64,000 nt of DNA, taken from the NCBI GenBank assembly GCA_904419735.1, contig CAJFSR010000003.1, forward strand, positions 11,290-75,289, written 5' to 3'. A program made the translations under genes and the position numbers. The notes under the pieces are model-generated. The model had not been told where the DNA came from. It saw only the letters and a list, made by a program, of their open reading frames with translations, and did not search any database. Within the stretch, counting starts at the first letter, position 1. Every line of letters starts with the position of its first letter. The DNA comes from Candidatus Neochristensenella gallicola. Lineage in GTDB: Bacteria > Bacillota > Clostridia > Christensenellales > QALW01. Shown in pieces: positions 12,404 to 60,797 of the stretch.

Positions 12404-12463
12404 AAGAAAAAGCACCGCAACCCTGATACCCATTGTATCAAAATTGCCAAAATTGCAGTGCTT
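12404..12463 (-). terminator. terminator of the tRNA-Gly/tRNA-Lys transcription unit
   Basis: On the minus strand: AAGCACUGCAA ... UUGCGGUGCUU followed by UUUUUC. It starts 3 nt after tRNA-Lys. Confidence 0.6.
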
Positions 12464-12466
12464 CTT

Positions 12467-12542
12467 TGGTGGACGATCAGGGGCTCGAACCCTGGACACC
12501 CTGATTAAGAGTCAGGTGCTCTACCAACTGAGCTAATCGTCC
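12467..12542 (-). tRNA. tRNA-Lys (anticodon CUU), CCA encoded
   Basis: Manual cloverleaf: acceptor GGACGAU/AUCGUCC, D arm GCUC-AGUUGGUA-GAGC, anticodon arm CCUGA-CUCUUAA-UCAGG, T arm CAGGG-UUCGAGC-CCCUG, then ACCA. Confidence 0.95.
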
Positions 12543-12545
12543 GTT

Positions 12546-12620
12546 TGGAGCGGAAGACGAGATTCGAACTCGCGACATTCGCCTTGGCAAGGCGACGCTC
12601 TACCACTGAGCCACTCCCGC
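12546..12620 (-). tRNA. tRNA-Gly (anticodon GCC), CCA encoded
   Basis: Manual cloverleaf: acceptor GCGGGAG/CUUCCGC, D arm GCUC-AGUGGUA-GAGC, anticodon arm UCGCC-UUGCCAA-GGCGA, T arm GCGAG-UUCGAAU-CUCGU, then UCCA. A TTTACA-17-TAATAT promoter lies near 12690-12660 on the minus strand. Confidence 0.95.
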
Positions 12621-12722
12621 ATTTTTTGCTAACAATTATTTCATTGTCAGCAGATGGTATATTATCATATTCCCCTCTTTTTGTAAAGCGTTTTTAGAGA
12701 TTAAATAAAAAATTTTTCAAAA

Positions 12723-15911: not shown

Positions 15912-16280
15912 CTATAGAATCAGCTGGACGGCTAAATTATCTAAAATCTGAAAAAGCAGAGGCAGCAGGCCGCACAGCACCCCCAATATTTTCTTCTTTC
16001 CCTCAGGCGCCATAAGCTTAGGCAGCAGAAAAAGCTGTATCACCACCAGAACTATTCTTATCCCCCACCAGGCAAAATGCCCGGTCGCAGTTATGCCTCT
16101 TAAATTCAAAAGAAAAAACAACAGCGCCAGAATGCCCTCAGGCAGCAGGGTTACATGCCAGAATTTTTTTGCAAAAGAAACAGGCCCCATTCCTATTATA
16201 AATGAATACAGCGTATAAATAACCGCGGCAATAAGTATAAAACCAACCGCCAGAAGCAATATCTGCAAAGTTATACTCAT
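15912..16280 (-). CDS. small integral membrane protein, unknown function
   Basis: 122-aa ORF with four hydrophobic helices, co-oriented with and 12 nt upstream of the transporter gene. Confidence 0.45.
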   Translation of the reverse strand: MSITLQILLLAVGFILIAAVIYTLYSFIIGMGPVSFAKKFWHVTLLPEGILALLFFLLNLRGITATGHFAWWGIRIVLVVIQLFLLPKLMAPEGKKKILGVLCGLLPLLFQILDNLAVQLIL

Positions 16281-16407: not shown

Positions 16408-16525
16408 CAGCGCCGCAAGAAACTGCCGCGGCGTTTGCGGCCCGAAGGGCCGCCGGCCGGGCTAACGCCCGGCCCAGGCAGGCGGTAACGCCTGCCAAAC
16501 GCCGCGGCAGTTTCTTGCGGCGCTG
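16408..16525. repeat. GC-rich nested-palindrome element, copy A (30-bp perfect outer arms, three inner hairpins)
   Basis: Arms CAGCGCCGCAAGAAACTGCCGCGGCGTTTG (16408-16437) and its exact reverse complement (16496-16525). Inner hairpins are CGGCCC-GAA-GGGCCG, GGCCGGGC-TAAC-GCCCGGCC and GGCAGGCG-GTAA-CGCCTGCC. Confidence 0.9.
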
Positions 16526-16694: not shown

Positions 16695-17432
16695 ATGAGT
16701 TCAAAAACAGTATTGATTACGGGTGCTTCACGGGGAATCGGCCGAGCCTGCGCCCTGGCCTTCGCTCACGCCGGCTGGAATGTAGCCGTAAATTATTTAA
16801 ACAGCGGCCAAAAAGCGTTAACACTGCTGGATGAAATTAAAAATGCAGGCTCCGGCGGCATAGCCGTCTGCGCCGATGTTTCTTCTCCTGACCAGGCTGA
16901 GATGCTTTTTAATAAAACCGCAGAAAAATTCGGCGGAATAGACGCGGTAATAAATAATGCCGGAATCGCGCAAAAAAAGCTCTTTATAGATATAACGCAG
17001 GAAGACTGGCAGAATATGCTCAACGTGAACCTTAGCGGCACTTTTCACTGCTGCCAGCAGGCAGTAAAACATATGATGTGGATCAGAAGGGGCTGCATAA
17101 TAAATATCTCTTCCATATGGGGCATAACGGGCGGAGCATGCGAGGTTCACTATTCTGCGGCAAAAGCCGGAATAATAGGCCTGACAAAAGCACTGGCAAA
17201 AGAGGCTGGCCAATGGAACATACGGGTAAACTGCATAGCGCCCGGAGTAATAGATACTGATATGATGGCCGGATTCAGCAGTCAGGATATTGCCGAATTA
17301 ACAAGCCAGACTCCTCTGGGCAGAATAGGCGCTCCCCCGGACATAGCCGCTTTAGCACTGTTTTTGGCCTCAGCTGACGCTCAGTTTATAACAGGCCAGG
17401 TAATAAGCCCTAACGGCGGTCTGGTTATATAA
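16695..17432 (+). CDS. SDR family oxidoreductase (3-oxoacyl-ACP reductase FabG-like)
   Basis: TGASRGIGRA cofactor motif, NNAG, catalytic YSAAKAG, 245 aa. Confidence 0.85.
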   Translation: MSSKTVLITGASRGIGRACALAFAHAGWNVAVNYLNSGQKALTLLDEIKNAGSGGIAVCADVSSPDQAEMLFNKTAEKFGGIDAVINNAGIAQKKLFIDITQEDWQNMLNVNLSGTFHCCQQAVKHMMWIRRGCIINISSIWGITGGACEVHYSAAKAGIIGLTKALAKEAGQWNIRVNCIAPGVIDTDMMAGFSSQDIAELTSQTPLGRIGAPPDIAALALFLASADAQFITGQVISPNGGLVI

Positions 17433-17685
17433 GTCCGGCCGTGCTCTGAAAGCGCTCAGCGGTCTTATATAGCTTGAAAAAGCGCAGTAATCCGCATATC
17501 TCCGGTTGACTCTGCGGCTTCAATTTATGAAAACTAGTCTGTTTTAATGGCGGACGAGGGGGCGCAGAGAAAGCGCACCCCCTATTTAGGATAACACAGA
17601 AAACGGGCAAATTTTCCGGCTGCGGCGCATTATCCCCTGCATACTAACACTAAAATATAATTATAAATAAAATGCGAGTAAAGCT

Positions 17686-18393
17686 ATGTTTCTGACTGTA
17701 AATAATATCAAATTATATTGCGAAAAATTAGGGCAAGGTCCCCCGCTTCTACTGCTGCACGGAAATAATGAATCTCATGAAATCTTCACTCCCCTCGCTG
17801 AAAGCCTAAAAGACATATTTACACTTTATATGCCTGACAGCCGGGGTCATGGCAAAAGCGAAAATGCGCCTTTAGATTATTATCTCATGGCGCAGGATAT
17901 CTATGGCTTAATTCAGAGCCTGGGACTTAAAAAACCGCATCTTATGGGCTTCAGCGACGGGGGTATTATTGCACTGCTTCTGGCCGCTAACTATCCCGAA
18001 TGCATTTCTTCCCTTATAGCGGCAGGCGCCAATCTTTCAGTTAAAGCCTTTAAGCCGCATGTCCTGATAAGCATGCAGCTGGAATACCTTTTTAAAAGAG
18101 ATCCAAAGCTGCGCTTAATGCTGAAACAGCCTGAAATTCCGACTCAAACGCTGGGCAGTATAGCCGCACCCTCCCTTATCATAGCAGGCGAAAAGGATGT
18201 GTTCCCGCTAAAGCACACGCTGCAAATAGCTCAAGCCATTGCTGATTCCCATTTATTAATTGTAAAGGGCAAAAATCACGGTAATTATATATATGGCTCA
18301 GATATGCTTTCCTCCGTTATTGCTCAATTCTGCCTAAAGCATACATTGCCGGCGCCAGCAGAAAATATATCCAGCCCTTTCATCAGGCTGTAA
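17686..18393 (+). CDS. alpha/beta hydrolase fold protein
   Basis: HG oxyanion motif LLLLHGNN, nucleophile elbow GFSDGG and a C-terminal His region (KNHGNY). Confidence 0.8.
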   Translation: MFLTVNNIKLYCEKLGQGPPLLLLHGNNESHEIFTPLAESLKDIFTLYMPDSRGHGKSENAPLDYYLMAQDIYGLIQSLGLKKPHLMGFSDGGIIALLLAANYPECISSLIAAGANLSVKAFKPHVLISMQLEYLFKRDPKLRLMLKQPEIPTQTLGSIAAPSLIIAGEKDVFPLKHTLQIAQAIADSHLLIVKGKNHGNYIYGSDMLSSVIAQFCLKHTLPAPAENISSPFIRL

Positions 18394-18562: not shown

Positions 18563-19300
18563 ATGGGCTTCAGCGAACAAAACGCTCTGGAATTTATAAA
18601 ACTGTATAATATAATTGATGACTGTCTGAGTAAAAGCCTGGGCGTAGAGAAAAATGACATGTCCTTTACTCAAAAAGTCAATACTCTGCGCACAAAAGGG
18701 GACCATATCATATCCCGCTTTTATGTGGATTTGCTTATCTATGCCAAGCTGCGCAACGTGGTAGTGCACGACACTACGACAGACGAGCCAATAGCGCGCC
18801 CCTCGGATATTACTATAGAAAAGATGCGCCAGATTATACAGCTTATGACTCAGGCTCCCCTGGCCCTGGACAGCATTGCGCACCCCTATTCTGAACTGCT
18901 GACCACCAAGCCCCATCATAAAATCGCAGAACTGATGCGGCGCATGCATAAATCAGGTGCGGCCTATGTACCCGTAATTGAAGACGGGCAGCTTGCCGGG
19001 GTGTTTTCCATGAGCGCACTGACCGCCTATATCAGCGCCAAAGGCATATCGAATATAAATGAAGAGCTTACCATCGCGCAGATGGAGCCTTATTACCGCA
19101 TAAACAATGCCAAGCGCACCGAAGCTTTTTTCTCGGTTGATGCCAATGCCGATATATACGATATAGACAACATATTCAATAAAACGGTCAATACCGGCCT
19201 GAGCATCGGCGCCGTATTTATTACGCACGACGGTTCAAATAACGGCCAGCTGCTCGGCATGGTAACGCCTTTTGATCTTGTGCGCATAAATATTGATTAG
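18563..19300 (+). CDS. CBS-pair protein with N-terminal HEPN-like (Rx4H) helical domain
   Basis: Residues about 1-100 are helical and contain LRNVVVHD (R64-x4-H69). Residues about 110-245 form two CBS repeats (AAYVPVIEDGQLAGVFSMSAL; AVFITHDGSNNGQLLGMVTPFDL). AGGAGAA RBS. Confidence 0.75.
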   Translation: MGFSEQNALEFIKLYNIIDDCLSKSLGVEKNDMSFTQKVNTLRTKGDHIISRFYVDLLIYAKLRNVVVHDTTTDEPIARPSDITIEKMRQIIQLMTQAPLALDSIAHPYSELLTTKPHHKIAELMRRMHKSGAAYVPVIEDGQLAGVFSMSALTAYISAKGISNINEELTIAQMEPYYRINNAKRTEAFFSVDANADIYDIDNIFNKTVNTGLSIGAVFITHDGSNNGQLLGMVTPFDLVRINID

Positions 19301-19316
19301 CGAAAGGAACCCCGCA

Positions 19317-20999
19317 ATGAAACTGAAAAGCCTTTTCAAAAACCGCAAAGGGATTATAATTATTACGTCAATAATTCTTGTGGTTGTAATTGTTGTAGTA
19401 GCCCTGGTACTGCTGCTGCCCGAAAAAAATCCGGCGGCAGCCGAACACGATATATTAAACTCGCTGCCTGAAAGCGTAACCTGCGTTCCTTATTTAAAAA
19501 ACGGCAGCCTTTATATCTATAAAGACGGCCAGGCCCGGCTCATAAGCGATGGAATTTATGAAAACGACGATATAGAGGAAGCTCAGCTTTTTGATTATGT
19601 ATGGTCGCAAAGCAGCGACGAACTGCTTTATCTTAAAAACGCCGAGGACAGCGGCGAGCTTATGCATTATAAGAACGGCTCTAATCAGCTCATTGCCAAA
19701 GGCGTTACGTCCTGGTGCACTATTGATAAAATGGATAGGGCCGCTTACATAATTGACGAGGATTCAGCATTGCAGACAGGCATGCTTATGCTGTATTACA
19801 ACAATGCATCCATCCTGCTGGATATAAACGTACAGCCCTCTTCCGTGCGCTTCAGTTCGGACGGCAACTATCTTTACGCGCTTAAATGCCATGACACCAG
19901 CGAGTTAAGCACAGGCATAGGCGATTTAATGAAATACGATATGGAAGGAAACCGCGAGATTATTCAGGAAGACGTCTACGGAGTGAATTGGCTGTCAAGT
20001 GACGGCAGCGCCTATATCTGCCTTTCACAGAACGCAGATACTATCACTTACGATTATCTTATAGTTTCAGGCGAACGCAGCGTAACCATAAATAATGTAT
20101 ATGCAGCTTCCATTACGGATGACCGGAGCATGATATACCTTCTGGCCGATTATGACACCGAACTGGAATTGGGGACCATCTATTCCCTGACTCTTGATAA
20201 TCTCAGGCAGCGCGAACTGGCTCAGAATGCAGCCTTTATGAATGCCGGCGGCATAACCGATTTGACCCAGGGCATATTATACAGCACTCCCGGAGATATG
20301 GCGGGCAGATATGATATAAACTATGTTACCTCATCCGGCCGCACATACTGTCTTATAACAAACGGTTTTGAACAGTCCCTTTATACCATATATCTTAATA
20401 CCCAGCAGCAAACGGGATATATCCTCATGCACGGCGTAAGCGCGGACCGGCATACCCTGCATTATATCGAATGGTCCAATGGGAGGATTGAGGATAAAAA
20501 GCTGGATGAACACGTTCACGAGCTTGTATATTACGAGGCCTGTGACAGTATTTTGTATATTAAAAACGGAAGCGGAAATACTGCCGACCTATACATGGTG
20601 ACAGGCGACCAGGAGCGGAAACTGGTAGCAGAAAACACCGGGGCCATCTATAACAGCACGGACGAATCCTACTATTCCTGTTCCATACTCTCCAATGACG
20701 GCAAAAAGGCTTTATATTTCACCAACATGATTAATACCGAGGAAAGCGAACTGGAATCCCATCCTATCGCTTCCTTATACGGCACTCTGCACATGATTGA
20801 CCTGGAAACGGGCACAAGCACAGAAATATCAAAGCAGGTAATGGCAAACGCAGTATTGTCTATTATGTCTGACGCAAGTATGGAGAATATATATTTTATG
20901 ACTTTAAACGGTGAACGCCTCAATCTCTGCCAATACGCTTCGGGCGAAGTCACCGTCCTTGACGAGGGGATAATGAATATGCTTATACCTACTATGTAG
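19317..20999 (+). CDS. membrane-anchored protein with TolB/PD40-like beta-propeller repeats
   Basis: N-terminal TM anchor IIIITSIILVVVIVVVALVLLL, then recurring SSDGNYLY / SSDGSAYI / SNDGKKALYF strand motifs. The ATG at 19317 lies 17 nt after the upstream stop; the ORF track starts at 19293. Confidence 0.6.
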   Translation: MKLKSLFKNRKGIIIITSIILVVVIVVVALVLLLPEKNPAAAEHDILNSLPESVTCVPYLKNGSLYIYKDGQARLISDGIYENDDIEEAQLFDYVWSQSSDELLYLKNAEDSGELMHYKNGSNQLIAKGVTSWCTIDKMDRAAYIIDEDSALQTGMLMLYYNNASILLDINVQPSSVRFSSDGNYLYALKCHDTSELSTGIGDLMKYDMEGNREIIQEDVYGVNWLSSDGSAYICLSQNADTITYDYLIVSGERSVTINNVYAASITDDRSMIYLLADYDTELELGTIYSLTLDNLRQRELAQNAAFMNAGGITDLTQGILYSTPGDMAGRYDINYVTSSGRTYCLITNGFEQSLYTIYLNTQQQTGYILMHGVSADRHTLHYIEWSNGRIEDKKLDEHVHELVYYEACDSILYIKNGSGNTADLYMVTGDQERKLVAENTGAIYNSTDESYYSCSILSNDGKKALYFTNMINTEESELESHPIASLYGTLHMIDLETGTSTEISKQVMANAVLSIMSDASMENIYFMTLNGERLNLCQYASGEVTVLDEGIMNMLIPTM

Positions 21000-21044
21000 G
21001 CAAGACAGGCAGAGCCCAAAAATAAAGCTGTTAATTATTCAAAT

Positions 21045-21082
21045 TGCGCAGAACCGCTTTTATGGTCTGCGCATTTTATTTT
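21045..21082 (+). terminator. intrinsic terminator of the 19317-20999 gene
   Basis: TGCGCAGAACC-N8-GGTCTGCGCA followed by TTTTATTTT. Confidence 0.8.
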
Positions 21083-21230
21083 AAACCGCATAACAGGGCT
21101 TATGGGCCCAGGGGGGCGCGGCGTTTGGCAGGCATTCTGCCTGCCCTCAGCCGGGCTTGTCCGGCTGGCGGCCGCAGGCCGCAAACGCCGCGCCCCCCTG
21201 GGCCCATAAGCCCTGTTATGCGGTTTAAAA
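21079..21230. repeat. GC-rich nested-palindrome element, copy B (49-bp perfect outer arms, three inner hairpins)
   Basis: 21079-21127 is the exact reverse complement of 21182-21230, checked base by base. Inner hairpins are GCAGGCA-TTC-TGCCTGC, CAGCCGG-GCTTGT-CCGGCTG and CGGCC-GCA-GGCCG. Confidence 0.92.
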
Positions 21231-21287
21231 AACAAAGCGCGTTTAAGACGCAGATAAAATTATCTGTCCGTCGTCCAAAACGCGCTT
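21226..21287 (-). terminator. intrinsic terminator of the aconitase gene
   Basis: On the minus strand: AAGCGCGUUUU...AAACGCGCUU with an inner CAGAUA/UAUCUG extension, followed by UGUUUUUU. Confidence 0.7.
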
Positions 21288-21326
21288 CAATTCATTAAAA
21301 ACACCCAGGAAAAATGCAGGGCAGCA

Positions 21327-23561
21327 TTATTTATCCGAATAATAATTTATAAGCCCGCCGCTGACCAATATATCCCGTTCATCCTCTGTCATAGAGGGGA
21401 TTTCCAGGGTTATTTCCATAGGCCCATCCTTCAGAACATACCCCTTGACCCTTTCCGCTTTGGAAAGAATAGCATCCTTTATACCCGGAATATATATAAA
21501 ATCATCTGTTTCAAATAACTGAGCCGTCTCCTGCGAAACGATAAAGGGCACCATTCCCCAGTTAATAAGATTGCTCCTATACCGTTTTGTGGCGTATTCA
21601 AGGGCTATATTTGCCCAGCCTCCAAGCACCTTCTGACAGCTTGCAGCCTGCTCGCGCGCAGAACCGTCTCCCGGCATATTGGCGTAAATGGCGCTGCCTA
21701 TTCCTATATTCCCATCAATAACCGCTCCCAGTTCTTTGGCCGCTTTGATATATTGAGCGTCAAGCTGCCTGCCGCCGTCCAAAAGCTCCTGCTGGGCGCG
21801 GGCAGCCTTGCTTTTGCCCACATAAGCCGGGTCCTTGCGCGAAAGGGCGTATTCGGACAGCTTATAAGGATTGGAACGCAAAGTGCTGGTTTCGCCCGAC
21901 GGTATAAGTTCATCAGTAGTTGTTACCTTATCCCTTATCACTGAGCACAGCCTTATCAGCAGATTATCAGGCATGCGGTGCAATTCGGGCCAGTCGGCTA
22001 TATTGGGCCCAAGTACCAGCTCTTCTTCCGGATGCGGATGCCCATAGCCGTTATATACCCGCTTTTTATATAACTCATCGTGATAGGTATACGGATATTT
22101 CTTATAATCCGCCTCAATTTCATCCGCGCCGGTAAGCCTGCCGCCGTTGAGCGCCGTAGCTGCGATAGAACGCGCGTCCATAAGCGCACAGTAGGAAATC
22201 TGGCCGTCCCCAGGCTTAGAACCCTCCCTGTTTGGGAAGTTGCGCGTACAGTGACGTATAGAAAAAGCATTATGCGCTGGCACATCCCCCGCGCCGAAGC
22301 ACGGGCCGCAGAAGGCTGTCTTTATAACGGCCCCCGCCCCCATTAAAGCAGCCATGCCGCCGTTATTTACTATCTCATAATATACGCTCTGGCTGGCCGG
22401 ATATACGCTCAGGGCAAATTCTCCGCTGCCCGTGTTTCCGCCCCTCAAGATATCCGCAGCAGCCATAATATTTTCAAAGATACCGCCGGCGCATCCCGCT
22501 ATAATACCCTGGTCGACATAAAATTCCCCGTTAATGAGCTTATCCGTCAGCTTGCTTTTTATGCCTGAAGAAGCGTACTGCTCATTAGCCGCGTTTTCCA
22601 AATCAACCAGCAGTTCCTTCGCATTACGCTTGAATTCGCGTATGGTGTAAGCGTTGCTGGGATGAAAGGGCAGCGCTATCATAGGCTCGATTTTATCCAA
22701 ATCTACAACTATAACACCGTCATAGCCCGCTATTTCGCCCGGCTTAATTTCCTTAAAATCCTGCTCACGCTTATGTATACGGTAATATTCCTTAACAGCC
22801 TCGTCTGTTTCCCAAATGGAGCTGAGACAGGTGGTCTCCGTAGTCATGACGTCAATGCCGCAGCGGTAATCCACGCTTAAATTCTTTATGCCGTCCCCTA
22901 TGAATTCCAGCACCTTATTCTTAACATGGCCGCCCGCAAAAACCTCCTTAATAAGCGCTATGGCTACGTCATGAGGTCCTACACCCGGCCGGGGTGCGCC
23001 CTTAAGAATAACTGCAATCACTTCAGGATAATTAATATCGTAAGTCTTGCTTAAAAGCTGCTTGACCAATTCAGGGCCGCCTTCACCCACAGCCATACAG
23101 CCAAGAGCGCCGTAACGGGTATGACTGTCCGAACCCAGCACCATTTTCCCGCAGCCTGCCAGTTCCTCCCGCGCATATGAATGTATTACGGCAATATGCG
23201 GGGGCACGAATATGCCGCCGTATTTGCGCGCCGCCGTATAGCCAAAGACATGATCGTCCTCATTCAGCGTGCCGCCTACGGCGCAGAGACTGTTATGACA
23301 GTTAGTAAGCGCGTAAGGAACGGGAAATTCCTTCAGGCCGCTGGCCCGTGCCGTCTGAATAATGCCCACATAGGTTATATCATGAGAGGCAAGCGCGTCA
23401 AATTTCAGCTGAAGCTGCGCCATATTCCCCGACGTATTATGGGCCGAAAGTATCTGATAAGCCATAGTGCTCTTAAAAGCGCTGTTATCAGCATCAACGT
23501 AATTTTTTAAAATCTCTTTTCCGTCTTTTATAAATGTCTTTTCCCAGTTGCAGCTAATCAT
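21327..23561 (-). CDS. aconitate hydratase (aconitase family, about 745-aa clostridial type)
   Basis: Fe-S ligand regions GSDSHT and CGPCFG, the NFPNREG substrate loop and a C-terminal swivel domain. Confidence 0.82.
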   Translation of the reverse strand: MISCNWEKTFIKDGKEILKNYVDADNSAFKSTMAYQILSAHNTSGNMAQLQLKFDALASHDITYVGIIQTARASGLKEFPVPYALTNCHNSLCAVGGTLNEDDHVFGYTAARKYGGIFVPPHIAVIHSYAREELAGCGKMVLGSDSHTRYGALGCMAVGEGGPELVKQLLSKTYDINYPEVIAVILKGAPRPGVGPHDVAIALIKEVFAGGHVKNKVLEFIGDGIKNLSVDYRCGIDVMTTETTCLSSIWETDEAVKEYYRIHKREQDFKEIKPGEIAGYDGVIVVDLDKIEPMIALPFHPSNAYTIREFKRNAKELLVDLENAANEQYASSGIKSKLTDKLINGEFYVDQGIIAGCAGGIFENIMAAADILRGGNTGSGEFALSVYPASQSVYYEIVNNGGMAALMGAGAVIKTAFCGPCFGAGDVPAHNAFSIRHCTRNFPNREGSKPGDGQISYCALMDARSIAATALNGGRLTGADEIEADYKKYPYTYHDELYKKRVYNGYGHPHPEEELVLGPNIADWPELHRMPDNLLIRLCSVIRDKVTTTDELIPSGETSTLRSNPYKLSEYALSRKDPAYVGKSKAARAQQELLDGGRQLDAQYIKAAKELGAVIDGNIGIGSAIYANMPGDGSAREQAASCQKVLGGWANIALEYATKRYRSNLINWGMVPFIVSQETAQLFETDDFIYIPGIKDAILSKAERVKGYVLKDGPMEITLEIPSMTEDERDILVSGGLINYYSDK

Positions 23562-37420: not shown

Positions 37421-37614
37421 GGCAGGGGCTTGAGTTAATGCTGAAAGGCTCAAAACGCAGCAAAGGGGGCGGCCCGCAGCTTTGGCCGCTGCCGCGGCCA
37501 AAGAGGGGCCTTGCCGCGCAGCGGCAAGGCCCCAGCCCGGCCGGAAGGCCGGGCCTGCGGGCCGCCCCTCCCCAAAAGCTTTTAAGCCTTTCAGCATTAA
37601 ATAAAGCCCCTGCC
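37421..37614. repeat. GC-rich nested-palindrome element, copy C (divergent subfamily with imperfect, about 60-nt outer arms)
   Basis: The outer arms pair in blocks of 11, 16 and 14 bp, separated by mismatches and an internal loop. Inner hairpins are CTTTGGCCGC-TGCC-GCGGCCAAAG (37480-37503), GGGGCCTTGCCGC-GCA-GCGGCAAGGCCCC (37505-37533) and GCCCGGCC-GGAA-GGCCGGGC (37535-37554). Confidence 0.85.
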
Positions 37615-47288: not shown

Positions 47289-47431
47289 GAGCCAAGGCTC
47301 AAGCGCCCAATGCAAAAACGGCGGCGTTTGCGGCCTGAAAGGCCGCCGGGCGAAGCTCAAAAGCTTCGTCCGGGCAGGCTCACAGCCTGCCAAACGCCGC
47401 CGTTTTTGCATTGGGCGCTTGAGCCTGGCTC
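47289..47431. repeat. GC-rich nested-palindrome element, copy D (35-bp perfect arms plus a 6-bp extension past a 1-nt bulge)
   Basis: GGCTCAAGCGCCCAATGCAAAAACGGCGGCGTTTG (47296-47330) is the exact reverse complement of 47391-47425. Inner hairpins are CGGCC-TGAAA-GGCCG, CCGGGCGAAGCT-CAAA-AGCTTCGTCCGG and GCAGGCT-CAC-AGCCTGC. Confidence 0.9.
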
Positions 47432-47614
47432 CGGCAGGTCTCCGGAACGCACGCCGCCTTTGCCCTTCTCCCGAGCCTTTTTAATGCATCCGGTTCACCT
47501 TATATTACGATACAATAAAGTATTGACTTGCATCATAAAAGCTATTAAAATATTCAAAAGCACAGCTCTTTACATTAAAAACTAAAAAACGAGCTGCAAA
47601 ATAAAGGTGAGAAA

Positions 47615-48932: not shown

Positions 48933-49187
48933 TACCCTCAGAAGGCATAAAATTTGTGTCCTGCTGTGCTGCTTTGGCTCCATGTACGCCAGGTACATGT
49001 CGTTTAAGAGCACTTTACCCGGCACAAATTTTATGCCTTCTGACGCTAAGACCTAAAACGGCGAGAATTTCTTCATTTCCAAGACAGACGAAGAAAGCGT
49101 ACCGGGGAGTACGCTGATTGAGGATAACGCGGAAAATGAAGAAATTCTCACGCTTGGAGGAGTGCAGTTACTGGTAAACTGAGGGTA
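48933..49187 (+). repeat. structured 255-bp element, family F copy 1
   Basis: Termini are TACCCTCAG / CTGAGGGTA. There is an 18-bp perfect stem (48941-48958 with 49023-40) around a conserved core (48966-49013), and a second stem of 18-19 bp (49063-80 with 49131-49). Confidence 0.8.
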
Positions 49188-53991: not shown

Positions 53992-54117
53992 ATAAAGTCT
54001 CTCCCTTTTATCCCACATAAAAAATTAATATATCTCCATTTTTAAACGATATGGATATTGCAGGCACTGTTTTGTTATAATGCTGTCAGTATAATTATTC
54101 AGAAAGGGAGGCCCTAT

Positions 54118-55608
54118 ATGAAATTATTAAAACTTTGCACCGCCGCCCTTATGGCTATTTTTATTATAGCTATGTCGGGATGCGGACAGGAGGCCGGTTC
54201 AGGCACGGAAGCAACGCCTTCCCCCACCTTCAGTACAGACACGCAGGATAACCAGCAAACTTCCAGCTATCTGCGTCCGCGCGGAGATTTAAAAAATGCC
54301 ATAAAGCAGGGAGAAACCTACAATTATCTTGTATGGTCAGTAGGCGATACGTCAAATCCATTTGAACATGAAACAGAAGTAAACAGAGTGGGCTGGACAG
54401 AACGCAAAGCCACTTTAGAAAGCAATTACGGAATAACCATAAACTATGTTCAGCCCACCACTAACTGGTGGCAGGACGCCTGCGCCAGCGCATACGCAGG
54501 CAATCCCTCGGTTGACTTTATGCATTGCGGAGGGCCTCTTACAGTATTGCCTATGTATGCCTATAACGGAACGGAGGCAAGCGTAGTTCTGCCGCTGAGC
54601 GATTACGCGGAATACGCTGATTTCAGTGATAATAACTGGTGGAACCAGGAGATTCAGGAATCAAACACAACTTTTAACAGCAAGCTTTATTTTGCGGTGC
54701 CTCAAAGCACCGGCATAGGCCAGGTATCATTTAACCAGATAGTGCTTTTCAATAAAGAGCTGCTCGAAAGGAACGGCTATCCGGCAGAAACTCTCTATGA
54801 ATGGAATGAAAACGGTGAATGGACATGGGATAAGTTCAGAGAAGTTGCTATCGCCTGCACGGATACCGACAACGCAATTTACGGAATAGCCCCCGCATAT
54901 CAGAATGCTCTTATCTGGTCGCTTGCCGCATCCAACGGAGCCGCCTTTATAACCCAGGTGGAAAACGGCGGCACTTCCTATTTTGAATTTACAGGAAACT
55001 CAAATGAAATGCTGGAAGCTTGGGACTTCCTAATTCAGCTCGGAAAAGACGGAGTACTCTACCGCGATCAGGGCTTTACCGCGGACAGCGAAACCTTTTT
55101 AACAGGCAAAACCGCCATGATGACCACATACGTTAACCGCACGTCTCAGCTGGTTACTTCGGGCGACTATCCAGAATACGGCATTCTGATGCCTCCTAAG
55201 GCGCCGGGAGCCGAAGATTATGTCTCGGATGTAAACTGGTTTGACCCCTACTGCGTGTTTAAAGGAACGGCTAACCCTGAGGGAACGGTGCAGCTTTTAG
55301 GCGATTACTGCTGCCCGCTGTATTCTTTGGAAGACGAGCGCAACGAGGCCGCGTTTGAAGCGGAACTGCTCAGCCTTACTTCGGACGAGGGCTCACAATG
55401 GACTCTTAGGAATATTGCCTCAAAGAGTTCTCCTCAAAGCTATTTTATGTTCTCTAACCTTACCTTCCCGGACGGCTCAAATTTCATCAACAAAATTACC
55501 GAGCAATGGATAACCTTTGTTGACGGCCAGCAGACTCCAGCCGCCTATTTTGATTCAATAACTGACAGCGTGAATTCGCTGCTGCGGGAGGCTCAGGGCT
55601 TAAAATAG
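54118..55608 (+). CDS. extracellular solute-binding lipoprotein (ABC-type, sugar-family-like), orphan
   Basis: Signal peptide plus lipobox MKLLKLCTAALMAIFIIAMSGC and about 480 aa of aromatic-rich SBP-like mature region. There are no adjacent permease or ATPase genes. GGGAGG RBS; the ORF track starts at 54058. Confidence 0.7.
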   Translation: MKLLKLCTAALMAIFIIAMSGCGQEAGSGTEATPSPTFSTDTQDNQQTSSYLRPRGDLKNAIKQGETYNYLVWSVGDTSNPFEHETEVNRVGWTERKATLESNYGITINYVQPTTNWWQDACASAYAGNPSVDFMHCGGPLTVLPMYAYNGTEASVVLPLSDYAEYADFSDNNWWNQEIQESNTTFNSKLYFAVPQSTGIGQVSFNQIVLFNKELLERNGYPAETLYEWNENGEWTWDKFREVAIACTDTDNAIYGIAPAYQNALIWSLAASNGAAFITQVENGGTSYFEFTGNSNEMLEAWDFLIQLGKDGVLYRDQGFTADSETFLTGKTAMMTTYVNRTSQLVTSGDYPEYGILMPPKAPGAEDYVSDVNWFDPYCVFKGTANPEGTVQLLGDYCCPLYSLEDERNEAAFEAELLSLTSDEGSQWTLRNIASKSSPQSYFMFSNLTFPDGSNFINKITEQWITFVDGQQTPAAYFDSITDSVNSLLREAQGLK

Positions 55609-55670: not shown

Positions 55671-55804
55671 TAGCCCCATAAGCAGTAACCGCGGCGCCGG
55701 GGGCGTTTAGCAGGCTTACGCCTGCTCGGCTGGGCCCGTAGGCCCAGCCCGGCGGCCGAAGGCCGCAAACGCCCCCGGCGCCGCGGTTACTGCTCATGGG
55801 GCTA
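55671..55804. repeat. GC-rich nested-palindrome element, copy E (38-bp arms, one mismatch)
   Basis: TAGCCCCATAAGCAGTAACCGCGGCGCCGGGGGCGTTT pairs with the reverse complement of 55767-55804, with a single A/C mismatch. Inner hairpins are AGCAGGC-TTAC-GCCTGCT, GCTGGGCC-CGTA-GGCCCAGC and GCGGCC-GAA-GGCCGC. Confidence 0.9.
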
Positions 55805-58308: not shown

Positions 58309-58573
58309 CCCTAAATTAACAAGGGCATATACGGTCAGGACAGGGCTGTTTGAGTGTCATGCCGTGCTGCTTTTCGCTCTGTGTACGTCCGGTACACGTC
58401 GTTCAAACGCCTTACAGGTTACGGAAGCGGCCGCTTCGACCCCCTGCGGTCTGATTTCGGCATTTTCAAGGAAGCGGAATGAGGCGTAATGAACGCACAC
58501 CCATTCACGATGACACAGCAAATGCCGAAATCAGACCGCAGGAGGCGTGTATCCTCCCCTTGTCAATTTAGGG
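58309..58573 (+). repeat. structured 265-bp element, family F copy 2
   Basis: Termini CCCTAAATTAACAAGGG / CCCTTGTCAATTTAGGG (one mismatch), conserved core 58364-58411, and a 22-bp perfect stem (58444-65 with 58520-41). Confidence 0.8.
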
Positions 58574-58964: not shown

Positions 58965-59316
58965 TTTAAAAGCGCAAACCGTTGAAGCGGAGATAACGGC
59001 AATAATGCCTTTACAGAGAGCCTGCGATGCTGCAAATCAGGCAAGAAACAGATTGTCAAATGGGCCGCTGAGGGTGCAGTCAAATGATATATATTATCAG
59101 AGTAATCTGCAACGTGTTGGCATACGTCAGTTGCCGGGGATATGCTGGTATCCCGCCAAGCGCACGGATAAAACCGTGAATTCAAGGTGGCACCGCGGAT
59201 ATGCTGTACTTATTATAGAGTATCTTATTCGTCCTTGACAGATAGGCTAATTCTGTCAGGGATATTTTTGTTTTAACTCCTCTGACCGAAAAAGTCCGGG
59301 GAGTTTTTATTTTCAG
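58965..59316 (+). promoter_or_regulatory. T-box riboswitch leader, tryptophan specifier (UGG)
   Basis: AGAGAG box in stem I, UGG at 59061-63 followed by a purine, T-box sequence AAGGUGGCACCGCGG (59184-98). Two terminator-like hairpins follow: 59233-59262 plus a U tract, and 59275-59312 plus UUUUUAUUUU. Confidence 0.88.
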
Positions 59317-59330
59317 CGGAGGTATAATGC

Positions 59331-60797
59331 ATGAAGATTCTGCCCACCCTGTCCCAGATACAAAACATAGCAGCAAGCGGCAAATATAATGTGCTGCCGG
59401 TAAGCTGCGAAATTCTATCCGATTTTATAACGCCTATAGAAGCCATGCGGATACTCAAAAACGTATCTACGCATTGCTATATGCTGGAATCAGCCTTGGC
59501 AAACGAGCAATGGGGACGCTATACCTTTCTCGGTTTTGAGCCAAAATTGGAGATAACCTGCATTAACGGCAAAATGAAAGCGGGCAGCCTTACGTTCCAT
59601 ACTGATAATCCTTCAAATTATCTCCGCCAGATTCTATCTGAATATAAAAGTCCCCGCTTTGACTGGCTCCCCCCCTTCACCGGCGGACTGGTAGGCTATT
59701 TCTCATACGATTACCTTGGGTACAGCGAACCGGCTGTTAAATGCAAAGCAGAGGATACAGAGGCATTTAAGGACGTTGATTTAATGCTTTTTGACAAGGT
59801 TATTGCTTTTGACCATGTAAGGCAGAAAATAATTCTTATAGTAAATATGCCTCTTAATGACATTGAGGTCGGATATAATAAGGCGGTTATGGAGCTGAAC
59901 CAGCTTATCCGGCTTCTGCGAAACGGCCAAAAGAAAGACGAGCCGGGCGGAAAGCTGCTGGGCGAAGCGGAAGCGCTCTTTAACAGAGAGCAGTACTGCG
60001 AAATGGTGCAGAAAGCTAAGCATTACATCCGCGAGGGAGATATTTTCCAGGTTGTACTCTCCAACCGCTTAAGCGCTCCGTTTGAGGGGAGCCTGCTCAA
60101 CACTTACCGGGTACTGCGCACAATCAATCCTTCACCCTATATGTTCTATTTTGCAGGCGCCGATGTAGAAGTGGCGGGAGCGTCTCCCGAAACTCTGGTA
60201 AAATTAGAGGATGGCATACTGCATACCTTCCCCCTGGCAGGAACCCGCCCCAGAGGCAGAACAGAAAAAGAAGATAAAAAATTGGAGGCAGAATTGCTTA
60301 AAGATGAAAAGGAGCGTGCCGAACATAATATGCTGGTGGATTTGGGACGGAACGACCTGGGCAAAATAAGCAGATTCGGCACCGTCGAGGTAGAAAAGCT
60401 GCACTCCATTGAACGCTATTCCCATGTTATGCATATCGGCTCGACAGTACGGGGAGAAATACGCGGCGAATACGGCGCTCTGGACGCTATAGAAGCCGTT
60501 CTGCCCGCAGGCACCCTTTCGGGCGCGCCCAAGATACGCGCCTGCCAGATTATCAGCGGGCTGGAGAATAATAAACGGGGCATTTACGGCGGCGCCATCG
60601 GCTATATAGATTTTACGGGCAACATGGATACCTGCATTGCAATACGCATCGCCTATAAGAAAAACGGCAGGGTGTTTGTAAGGTCGGGAGCAGGAATTGT
60701 AGCCGATTCAATTCCTGAAAAGGAATATGAGGAATGCCTGAATAAGGCCGGAGCAGTGCTGAAAGCTCTGGAATTAGCGCAGGAGGCTGAATTATGA
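59331..60797 (+). CDS. trpE: anthranilate synthase component I
   Basis: Chorismate-binding C-terminal motifs LSGAPK, GIYGGAIGY and IRIA, 488 aa. Confidence 0.95.
   Translation: MKILPTLSQIQNIAASGKYNVLPVSCEILSDFITPIEAMRILKNVSTHCYMLESALANEQWGRYTFLGFEPKLEITCINGKMKAGSLTFHTDNPSNYLRQILSEYKSPRFDWLPPFTGGLVGYFSYDYLGYSEPAVKCKAEDTEAFKDVDLMLFDKVIAFDHVRQKIILIVNMPLNDIEVGYNKAVMELNQLIRLLRNGQKKDEPGGKLLGEAEALFNREQYCEMVQKAKHYIREGDIFQVVLSNRLSAPFEGSLLNTYRVLRTINPSPYMFYFAGADVEVAGASPETLVKLEDGILHTFPLAGTRPRGRTEKEDKKLEAELLKDEKERAEHNMLVDLGRNDLGKISRFGTVEVEKLHSIERYSHVMHIGSTVRGEIRGEYGALDAIEAVLPAGTLSGAPKIRACQIISGLENNKRGIYGGAIGYIDFTGNMDTCIAIRIAYKKNGRVFVRSGAGIVADSIPEKEYEECLNKAGAVLKALELAQEAEL

Follow-up and report, generated by a model that had tools for sequence, protein, structure and literature searches.

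Mobile GC-rich non-coding modules, namely the GC clusters of yeast mitochondria and the double-hairpin elements of Allomyces mitochondria, invade AT-richer intergenic DNA, and they are multi-hairpin structures with no coding capacity. The inverted terminal repeats of parvoviruses such as adeno-associated virus (AAV) form the termini of linear single-stranded DNA viruses which replicate by hairpin transfer; there a long stem closes small GC-rich internal palindromes found in two reverse-complement configurations, flip and flop. Among bacterial repeats, the hairpin miniature inverted-repeat transposable elements (MITEs; Correia/NEMIS, ERIC, RUP, BOX, Nezha, Bcr1) are small, non-coding and intergenic, with strong predicted structure and presence/absence variation, and they have conserved terminal inverted repeats along their ends and target-site duplications. 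The repetitive extragenic palindromes (REPs) and REPIN-RAYT systems of Enterobacteria and Pseudomonas are short, GC-rich, extragenic, high-copy and non-autonomous palindromes (PMC3116915, PMC3337134, PMC3733652), and a REP is defined as an imperfect palindrome of 20-40 bp with a terminal GTAG (or CGTC) tag (PMC3733652). Intrastrand template switching at quasipalindromes, which turns imperfect inverted repeats into perfect ones and inverts loops, has been characterised in E. coli (PMC7202029, PMC6357072). In the present work a nested GC-rich palindrome of 152 bases, termed copy B, and the family to which it belongs were analysed in a stretch of 64,000 nucleotides of Candidatus Neochristensenella gallicola (contig CAJFSR010000003.1, positions 11,290 to 75,289; the whole stretch is called the window).

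The comparison of these elements with the described systems revealed both likeness and difference. The organelle modules have other hosts and sequences and are without long unique arms or a stem-closed three-hairpin junction, and, unlike the AAV termini, the present elements are repeats scattered over the chromosome, which belong to no accompanying genome and match no phage or plasmid. They resemble the MITEs in size, intergenic position, predicted structure and variable presence, but the closing stem of 7-11 bp is the only conserved terminal repeat, the arms differ everywhere and no duplication is present. With the REPs they share, besides the properties given above, the location mostly at gene 3' ends and in convergent gaps, both orientations, clustering, the lack of target-site duplication and the persistence of some orthologous sites. 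They differ from them in having a three-hairpin junction as the unit and not a single hairpin or REP doublet, in the long, unique and perfectly paired arms of each copy, in mutual nesting and in the host, a gut clade of Firmicutes. Neither GTAG nor CGTC was conserved as a tag in the alignment of 24 cores or in the model alignment of 72 matches, the ends being GGCGTTTG and CAAACGCC, and the loci sampled, in a search that did not extend to whole genomes, contained neither a RAYT nor a related insertion sequence. Quasipalindrome mutagenesis predicts the observed features, but it is known as a mutational hotspot at single loci and is not known to maintain or lengthen the copies of a dispersed family. 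Neither the three-hairpin junction nor the unique perfect arms, the self-nesting or the loop flip-flop appears in the descriptions of the families checked, and a literature search on nested or four-way-junction palindromic repeats in these taxa gave nothing relevant. The family is real, multi-copy, clade-restricted and apparently undescribed. Copy B is best explained, with a probability of about 0.55, as a non-coding, non-autonomous, GC-rich palindromic repeat of REP/MITE-like kind, selfish or neutral, the pairing of which would be maintained by intrastrand template switching.

Structure of copy B and extent of the family

The inverted-repeat finder and the sequence itself showed that positions 21079-21127 and 21182-21230 of the window are exact reverse complements of 49 nt each, which bears out the initial annotation of this DNA, as do the three GC hairpins that make up the 54-nt interior. 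The palindrome stretches with three mismatches to 21069-21240, giving arms of 59 nt (21069-21127 and 21182-21240) that are 95% complementary and separated by 54 nt; its core is on the minus strand when read from the first hairpin (hp1) to the third (hp3). The last 8 nt of the 49-nt left arm, GGCGTTTG at 21120-21127, form the conserved closing stem with the 8 nt CAAACGCC that open the right arm. The junction between them (21128-21181, minus strand) consists of hp3 at 21128-21144 (GCAGGCA-TTC-TGCCTGC), the variable hp2 at 21148-21167 (CAGCCGG-GCTTGT-CCGGCTG) and hp1 at 21169-21181 (CGGCC-GCA-GGCCG). The covariance-model match R1 of copy B spans 21115-21194 on the minus strand with 71 bits. Folding of the B region gave -149.4 kcal/mol as RNA (z = -18.1) and -98.3 kcal/mol as DNA (z = -19.4), and 0 of 200 shuffles was as stable in either case.

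Copy B had been placed between two convergent terminators, and both hairpins with T-runs are present, but the strict terminator scan called the right one only. The left hairpin (21046-21082, plus strand; GCGCAGA...TCTGCGC and then a T-run) directly adjoins the left end of the palindrome, with some overlap, and is the likely terminator of the open reading frame (ORF) 19293-20999; it is conserved across all strains and was missed by the scan because of its 12-nt loop. The right hairpin (21226-21287, minus strand), with 16-nt arms that are 88% complementary and a T-run, is the likely terminator of the aconitase-family gene 21327-23561. The arms of B reach exactly to, and partly through, the T-tracts of both terminators.

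The core shared by the family is about 70-85 bp long and consists of three hairpins closed by a stem of 7-11 bp. Sequence conservation within the element is strongest in hp1 (GCGGCC-loop-GGCCGC), the middle hairpin is hypervariable and the third reads GCAGGC-loop-GCCTGC. Five copies in the window had been assigned to one family. Four of them (A, B, D and E) do have one core in common, GGCGTTTG-CGGCC-loop-GGCCG-CC-(variable hairpin)-GCAGGC-loop-GCCTGC-YAAACGCC, and its consensus GGCGTTTGCGGCC-N3-5-GGCCGCC was found 4 times in the window, two per strand, against 0.00 expected from shuffles. Copy C follows the same plan but belongs to a separate second subfamily. Copy A (16408-16525, plus strand) has an A-type core at 16430-16503 and 30-nt arms that are 100% complementary, and lies in a divergent intergenic region. 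Copy D (47295-47426, plus strand; core 47323-47398), with 36-nt arms of 100% complementarity, is flanked by genes on the same strand, and copy E (55671-55804, minus strand), with 38-nt arms of 97% complementarity, is located between convergent genes and has A in place of G in its closing stem (TAAACGCC). Copy C (37421-37614), between divergent genes, has 35-nt arms of 91% complementarity and a different closing stem, GGGGGCGGC; here a long stem closes a first hairpin TTTGGCCGC..., a variable 13-bp hairpin and a last hairpin GCCCGGCC-GGAA-GGCCGGGC. The C-type hairpin TTTGGCGCC-N5-6-GGCGCCAAA was found at 10 or more sites, and C-type relatives were seen in the related loci L093, L097, L006, L065, L114 and L152. 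All five window copies fall between long ORFs and both orientations occur, as had been noted at first.

The distribution of the family was analysed with a covariance model built from the 24 cores together with an nhmmer profile. This search gave 109 copies in about 1.07 Mb of clade DNA (related gut-metagenome loci), where they occupy 60 distinct sites, so the family is not limited to the five loci of the window. A metagenome scan requiring both core ends returned 56 loci. In a scan of one genome per species, full elements were found only in two genomes of about 47% GC, QALW01 ("Selenomonadales bacterium CIM:MAG 469") and URIR01 (UMGS1037), and the remaining matches were chance matches in high-GC genomes. 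The aconitase-family protein of the window is 90.5% identical to the QALW01 protein PWL99882.1, which indicates that the hosts of the element are related species of one uncultured gut clade and not distant ones. As far as sampled, the family occurs only in a small clade of gut Firmicutes that form spores and have not been cultured.

The absence of an Rfam family, which the first reading of the sequence had suggested, was seen at both levels of the search: the whole window gave only two tRNAs at the gathering threshold of Rfam 15, and a sensitive scan of 21000-21300 gave only chance-level matches (E >= 0.03). Phage blastn gave no match, plasmid blastn gave one chance match, and a pattern scan of viral contigs gave two chance matches only, in high-GC contigs. 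The idea that the unique arms are spacer-like copies of phage or plasmid DNA was tried with copy B (window 21060-21250) and rejected, as no matches were found.

Pairing of the arms and the RNA alternative

The effect of substitutions on the pairing was analysed in a set of 70 distinct sequences with 30 pairs and 2098 cells. Covariation extends to all four helices, with 98.3% of cells paired. Of the 30 pairs, 28 have changes on both sides; at the level of single cells, 307 are altered on both sides against 17 on one side, and 0 of 500 shuffles reach these values. The signal collapses when the pairing partners are shifted by 1-3 columns. The closing stem also covaries in diverged copies (GCGTGAG/CTCACGC, GCTCTTG/CAAGAGC and others). 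Pairing is almost entirely of Watson-Crick type, with G-U/U-G in 17 of the 2098 cells (0.8%), which is below outright mismatches; in the arms there are 460 Watson-Crick pairs, 11 G.T, 5 A.C and 21 other combinations. The hp1 loops occur among sites in reverse-complement pairs (GGAAC 7 and GTTCC 2; CGAAG 10 and CTTCG 2; GAA 5 and TTC 5), and paralogous cores differ chiefly in loop flips (TGAC vs GTCA; AAA vs TT).

The most informative comparison is between the orthologous copies of L006 and L034, in species with flanking DNA only 68% identical, which marks an old copy. Their arms are about 70% identical, contain at least 5 compensated double changes and pair perfectly in both. The perfect pairing despite the diverged flanks, with compensated changes, implies that something actively preserves the pairing, as the initial annotation had argued; these alignments show the preservation directly. 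Between L146 and L168 a 3-bp indel (GAA/TTC) is present in both arms at mirrored positions, and this could hardly have arisen by independent mutation and selection. Watson-Crick-only stems, loop flips and mirrored changes are the signatures expected of template switching. We infer that it acts in these elements: switching templated by the hairpin within one strand during replication would copy one arm from the other and invert the loops, so that pairing would be kept and the arms perfected or lengthened.

An artefact of sequencing or assembly, in which chimeric reads or folding of the de Bruijn graph make palindromes, can be set aside as having a negligible chance of being correct. Contigs do often stop within elements (the end of L092 at 8413, the end of L095 at 16935 and the start of L169 at 1-30), and some homopolymer differences between strains could be errors. 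Against this, the same elements with the same unique arms recur across many independent assemblies from different studies and assemblers, copy B itself being carried by all of at least 9 independent assemblies of the same species, and compensated substitutions separate orthologous copies. The contig ends show that short-read metagenome contigs of this gut species are fragmented by the elements.

Another explanation is a structured RNA, lying in 3' untranslated regions or acting as a small RNA, with its helices kept by selection at the RNA level. It might stabilise mRNAs, offer a site to RNase III, act as a terminator or insulator, or serve as a sponge for proteins. The very strong covariation in four helices speaks for it, as does the enrichment of the elements downstream of genes, at a median of about 85 nt from the stop codon; the arms also have slightly more G.T than A.C in the core orientation (the 11 and 5 given above), a difference that is not significant. 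All 60 distinct sites lie outside long ORFs, and 43 of the 47 classifiable sites adjoin the 3' end of a gene, a bias shared with REPs. Convergent gaps hold 18 of the 47 sites (38%) against 18% of all gaps (p = 0.0009), and divergent gaps hold few (4 of 47). Tolerated selfish repeats, REPs among them, are usually distributed in this way.

The other results do not favour an RNA. The G-U content is below that of mismatches, both reverse-complement loop forms occur, and the orientation relative to the upstream gene is unbiased (14 same, 11 opposite). G-U intermediates, loop conservation and fixed orientation, which form the signature of a functional RNA, are thus lacking despite the strong covariation. 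Copies B and E each lie between separate terminator-like hairpins of their convergent neighbours, copies A and C are in divergent promoter regions, and no Rfam family matches. T-runs were found at the arm 3' end at 13 of 59 sites against 16% of random 18-mers; as they are not enriched, the arms were rejected as intrinsic terminators. An RNA or terminator role is therefore probably not the explanation, and the structured-RNA reading is considered improbable. The few G-U pairs, the loop flips, the mirrored indel, the lack of orientation bias and the decay seen among strains are in accordance with the earlier preference for a DNA-level, copy-correcting or selfish process over a transcribed RNA.

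Insertion, nesting and turnover of the elements

The comparison of paralogues defined the shared unit. Near-identical cores are set in unrelated flanks (L126 at 5991 vs 8488; L066 at 113 vs 818; also L016 and L048), and the similarity between them ends at GGCGGCGTTTG...CAAACGCCGCC. As similarity is limited to the core, the core is the shared unit and the outer arms belong to the site. The arms, 6 to 52 bp long with a median of about 16, are inverted repeats of one another and not direct repeats, so the statement that the distal arms are unrelated between copies and complementary within each copy holds for the family. No target-site duplication was found around the whole palindrome, the direct repeats having a mean of 1.59 nt against 1.59 nt at random positions.

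The elements are also nested in one another, which is a feature beyond those in the initial annotation. Two places in L066 (240-480 and 2150-2400) show this: three hairpins are closed by a stem with an A-run and a T-run at its borders, and the central hairpin is itself a long stem around an A-type core. An A-type core is likewise found within the middle hairpin of a C-type element at L006/L034, L065/L152 and L114.

One alternative holds that the core hairpins would be recognised in single-stranded DNA by an enzyme with its gene at another place in the genome, either a single-copy Y1/HUH transposase (RAYT or IS200/IS605-like) or a different structure-specific recombinase, and that this enzyme would insert the core into existing palindromes or hairpin tips. 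The arms would then be the target, with pairing kept by ordinary selection on those hairpins. The conserved hairpins at both core ends with a short terminal inverted repeat, the location at gene 3' ends, the nesting within other hairpins and the absence of target-site duplication, which is typical of Y1 transposition (PMC3733652, PMC3116915), are favourable to it. The missing GTAG or CGTC tag of the REP definition (PMC3733652) is not. The ORFs of 100 aa or more from the flanking loci (about 0.5 Mb) were all clustered and then searched against Pfam, and no transposase-like multi-copy ORF was found there; the clustering gave only housekeeping families and three unannotated families, which are orthologues or paralogues of neighbouring genes. 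Moreover, such insertion implies empty targets that are perfect palindromes of 14-100 bp without a spacer, and it is implausible that these were commonly available; the T-run count shows that the arms are not generally former terminators. The loop flips and the mirrored indel are left unexplained by an enzyme by itself. An enzyme-driven insertion is accordingly judged unlikely.

Under template switching, new copies would arise by copying of the core into the tip of an existing GC-rich hairpin, the copying agent being either a structure-specific enzyme or ectopic template switching at GC-rich microhomology. Two forms of the process may be distinguished. In the first, the core would enter a pre-existing GC-rich hairpin at its tip, which the nesting and the always GC-rich junction fit. 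In the second, the strong hairpin would drive fold-back copying after insertion, so that one flank becomes an inverted copy of the other. Flank copying fits with the implausibility of spacer-less palindromic empty targets, with arms that are not former terminators and with the ends of the B arms at or in the terminator T-tracts; at copy B the arms would have zipped outward as far as the T-tracts of both convergent terminators. A further and less likely reading is that the elements are a new type of bacterial mobile DNA, self-nesting cloverleaf palindromes that would spread without a conventional transposase by hairpin-primed template switching at the replication fork. They would copy into hairpin tips or build an inverted duplicate of their own flank, and the same process would keep the helices paired and flip the loops.

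The turnover of the elements was followed between species and strains. Presence or absence varies among sister species at 3 of the 4 sites examined. At the A site one sister species is without an element and another has a C-type element, and E is absent from the 88%-identical relative L169. The D site is occupied in L169 (1-100, compared with window 47380-47530), with the core reversed relative to a conserved promoter-like AAAGTATTGACT; either the whole core has been inverted between the arms, or the element was inserted there independently. Whole-core inversion between strains was seen in 0 of 49 within-site comparisons. Between strains of the window species (about 99% nucleotide identity) the differences cluster in the elements. 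Three strains have GC-TT-GC as the hp2 loop of B and another three have GC-AA-GC, and the hp2 loop of E reads CGTA or TACG. Copy A has a 1-nt bulge in strains, with an 8-nt deletion in hp1 in one of them, the relative L149 has a scrambled arm, and single-nucleotide polymorphisms (SNPs) and indels confined to one arm occur. The decay and deletions among strains indicate that individual copies are dispensable.

These data bear on the proposal that a host protein binds the elements as cruciforms or four-way junctions, with selection on the extruded DNA keeping the stems. Candidate roles of such a protein are nucleoid organisation, gyrase or topoisomerase action, junction binding or recombination, and replication or segregation. 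Covariation restricted to Watson-Crick pairs fits a DNA duplex or hairpin, the hairpin GCGGCC...GGCCGC is strictly conserved, the three-hairpin plan is present in two subfamilies, and one copy has been kept at an orthologous site, the L006/L034 site described above. The proposal is made quite unlikely by the presence/absence differences between sister species, the tolerance of strains to hairpin deletions and arm damage, the wide range of arm length, and the irregular clustering and nesting of copies.

Several results weigh against a selfish or neutral repeat maintained by template switching. Most recent polymorphisms of the arms among strains are asymmetric (single SNPs, one-arm indels), which means that the correction, if real, is not immediate; the asymmetric differences may be partly assembly noise. 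As the searches recovered no clean empty site, what was inserted and how the arms arose are deduced and not observed. For B, two sister species with the same gene order lack the element, with spacers too diverged to align, and a metagenome scan for both flanking terminators 0-30 nt apart gave no match. The E site of L169 is empty and cannot be aligned, and a flank-based search over 1 Mb of loci gave no clean presence/absence pair. The comparison of close strains and relatives, suggested from the start, thus yielded presence/absence differences between species but no target-site duplication. No mobilising enzyme was identified in the flanking loci. Finally, the enrichment in convergent gaps would also follow from a role at 3' ends, and the sequence conservation of hp1 together with the three-hairpin plan across subfamilies could reflect selection for a protein or an RNA function.

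Neighbouring features and significance of the family

The genes next to the window copies are ordinary chromosomal ones, coding for the aconitase-family hydratase, isocitrate dehydrogenase, argC, ABC exporters and a FabG-like reductase. ORFs 19293-20999 (beside B) and 54058-55608 (beside E) encode conserved proteins of 500-570 aa with no NCBIfam hit. A multi-copy homologue of the latter (L130:423-1964, 513 aa) gave no Pfam hit, and homologues of the protein beside E are found at several loci regardless of the presence of an element, which indicates no link to the repeats. At many loci, gene callers and ORF lists call spurious ORFs of 90-160 aa over the stop-poor GC-rich elements, for example a 150-aa call spanning copy B in L100 (12044-12496).

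A second, AT-richer palindrome family with the same plan was observed at 48933-49048, 49052-49160 and 58440-58545. Unique arms of 26-27 nt, 81-96% complementary, surround a conserved interior of about 55-64 nt, and a shared motif TGTACGNCNGGTACANGTCGTT occurs at 48983 and 58382. Rfam gave no match to this family. The 228-nt tandem pair 48933-49160 is missing from the same spacer in L169 and L170. The unique arms of this family hint that inverted flanks specific to each site may be made by a mechanism that is host-wide or shared.

Other variable features of the window were also recorded. An insertion of about 230 nt which is not GC-rich lies between the abhydrolase and short-chain dehydrogenase genes in two strains (L100, about 16050-16280; L102, about 12410-12640; window region 17432-17686) and is missing from the window and four other strains. 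In L099 (21056-22235) a tyrosine integrase and a Rep_trans gene take the place of window sequence near two tRNA genes (12470-12620), and this region is probably a strain-specific integrated element. A T-box leader match at 58973-59239 (plus strand; 77 bits, E = 1e-16), upstream of ORF 59331-60797, falls short of the gathering score set by Rfam (93).

Short-read assemblies of abundant species of the human gut are broken by the elements, which also generate spurious ORF calls, and they mimic covarying RNA structure strongly enough to mislead RNA-discovery pipelines; near-absent G-U pairs together with loop flips offer a simple diagnostic for palindromes maintained at the DNA level. If the template-switching explanation is true, this clade would be a natural system in which template switching maintains, lengthens and perhaps spreads a whole palindrome family. 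The propagation of transposase-less palindromic repeats, such as CGTC-type REPs and organelle GC clusters, and the survival of long perfect palindromes in bacterial chromosomes would then become testable.

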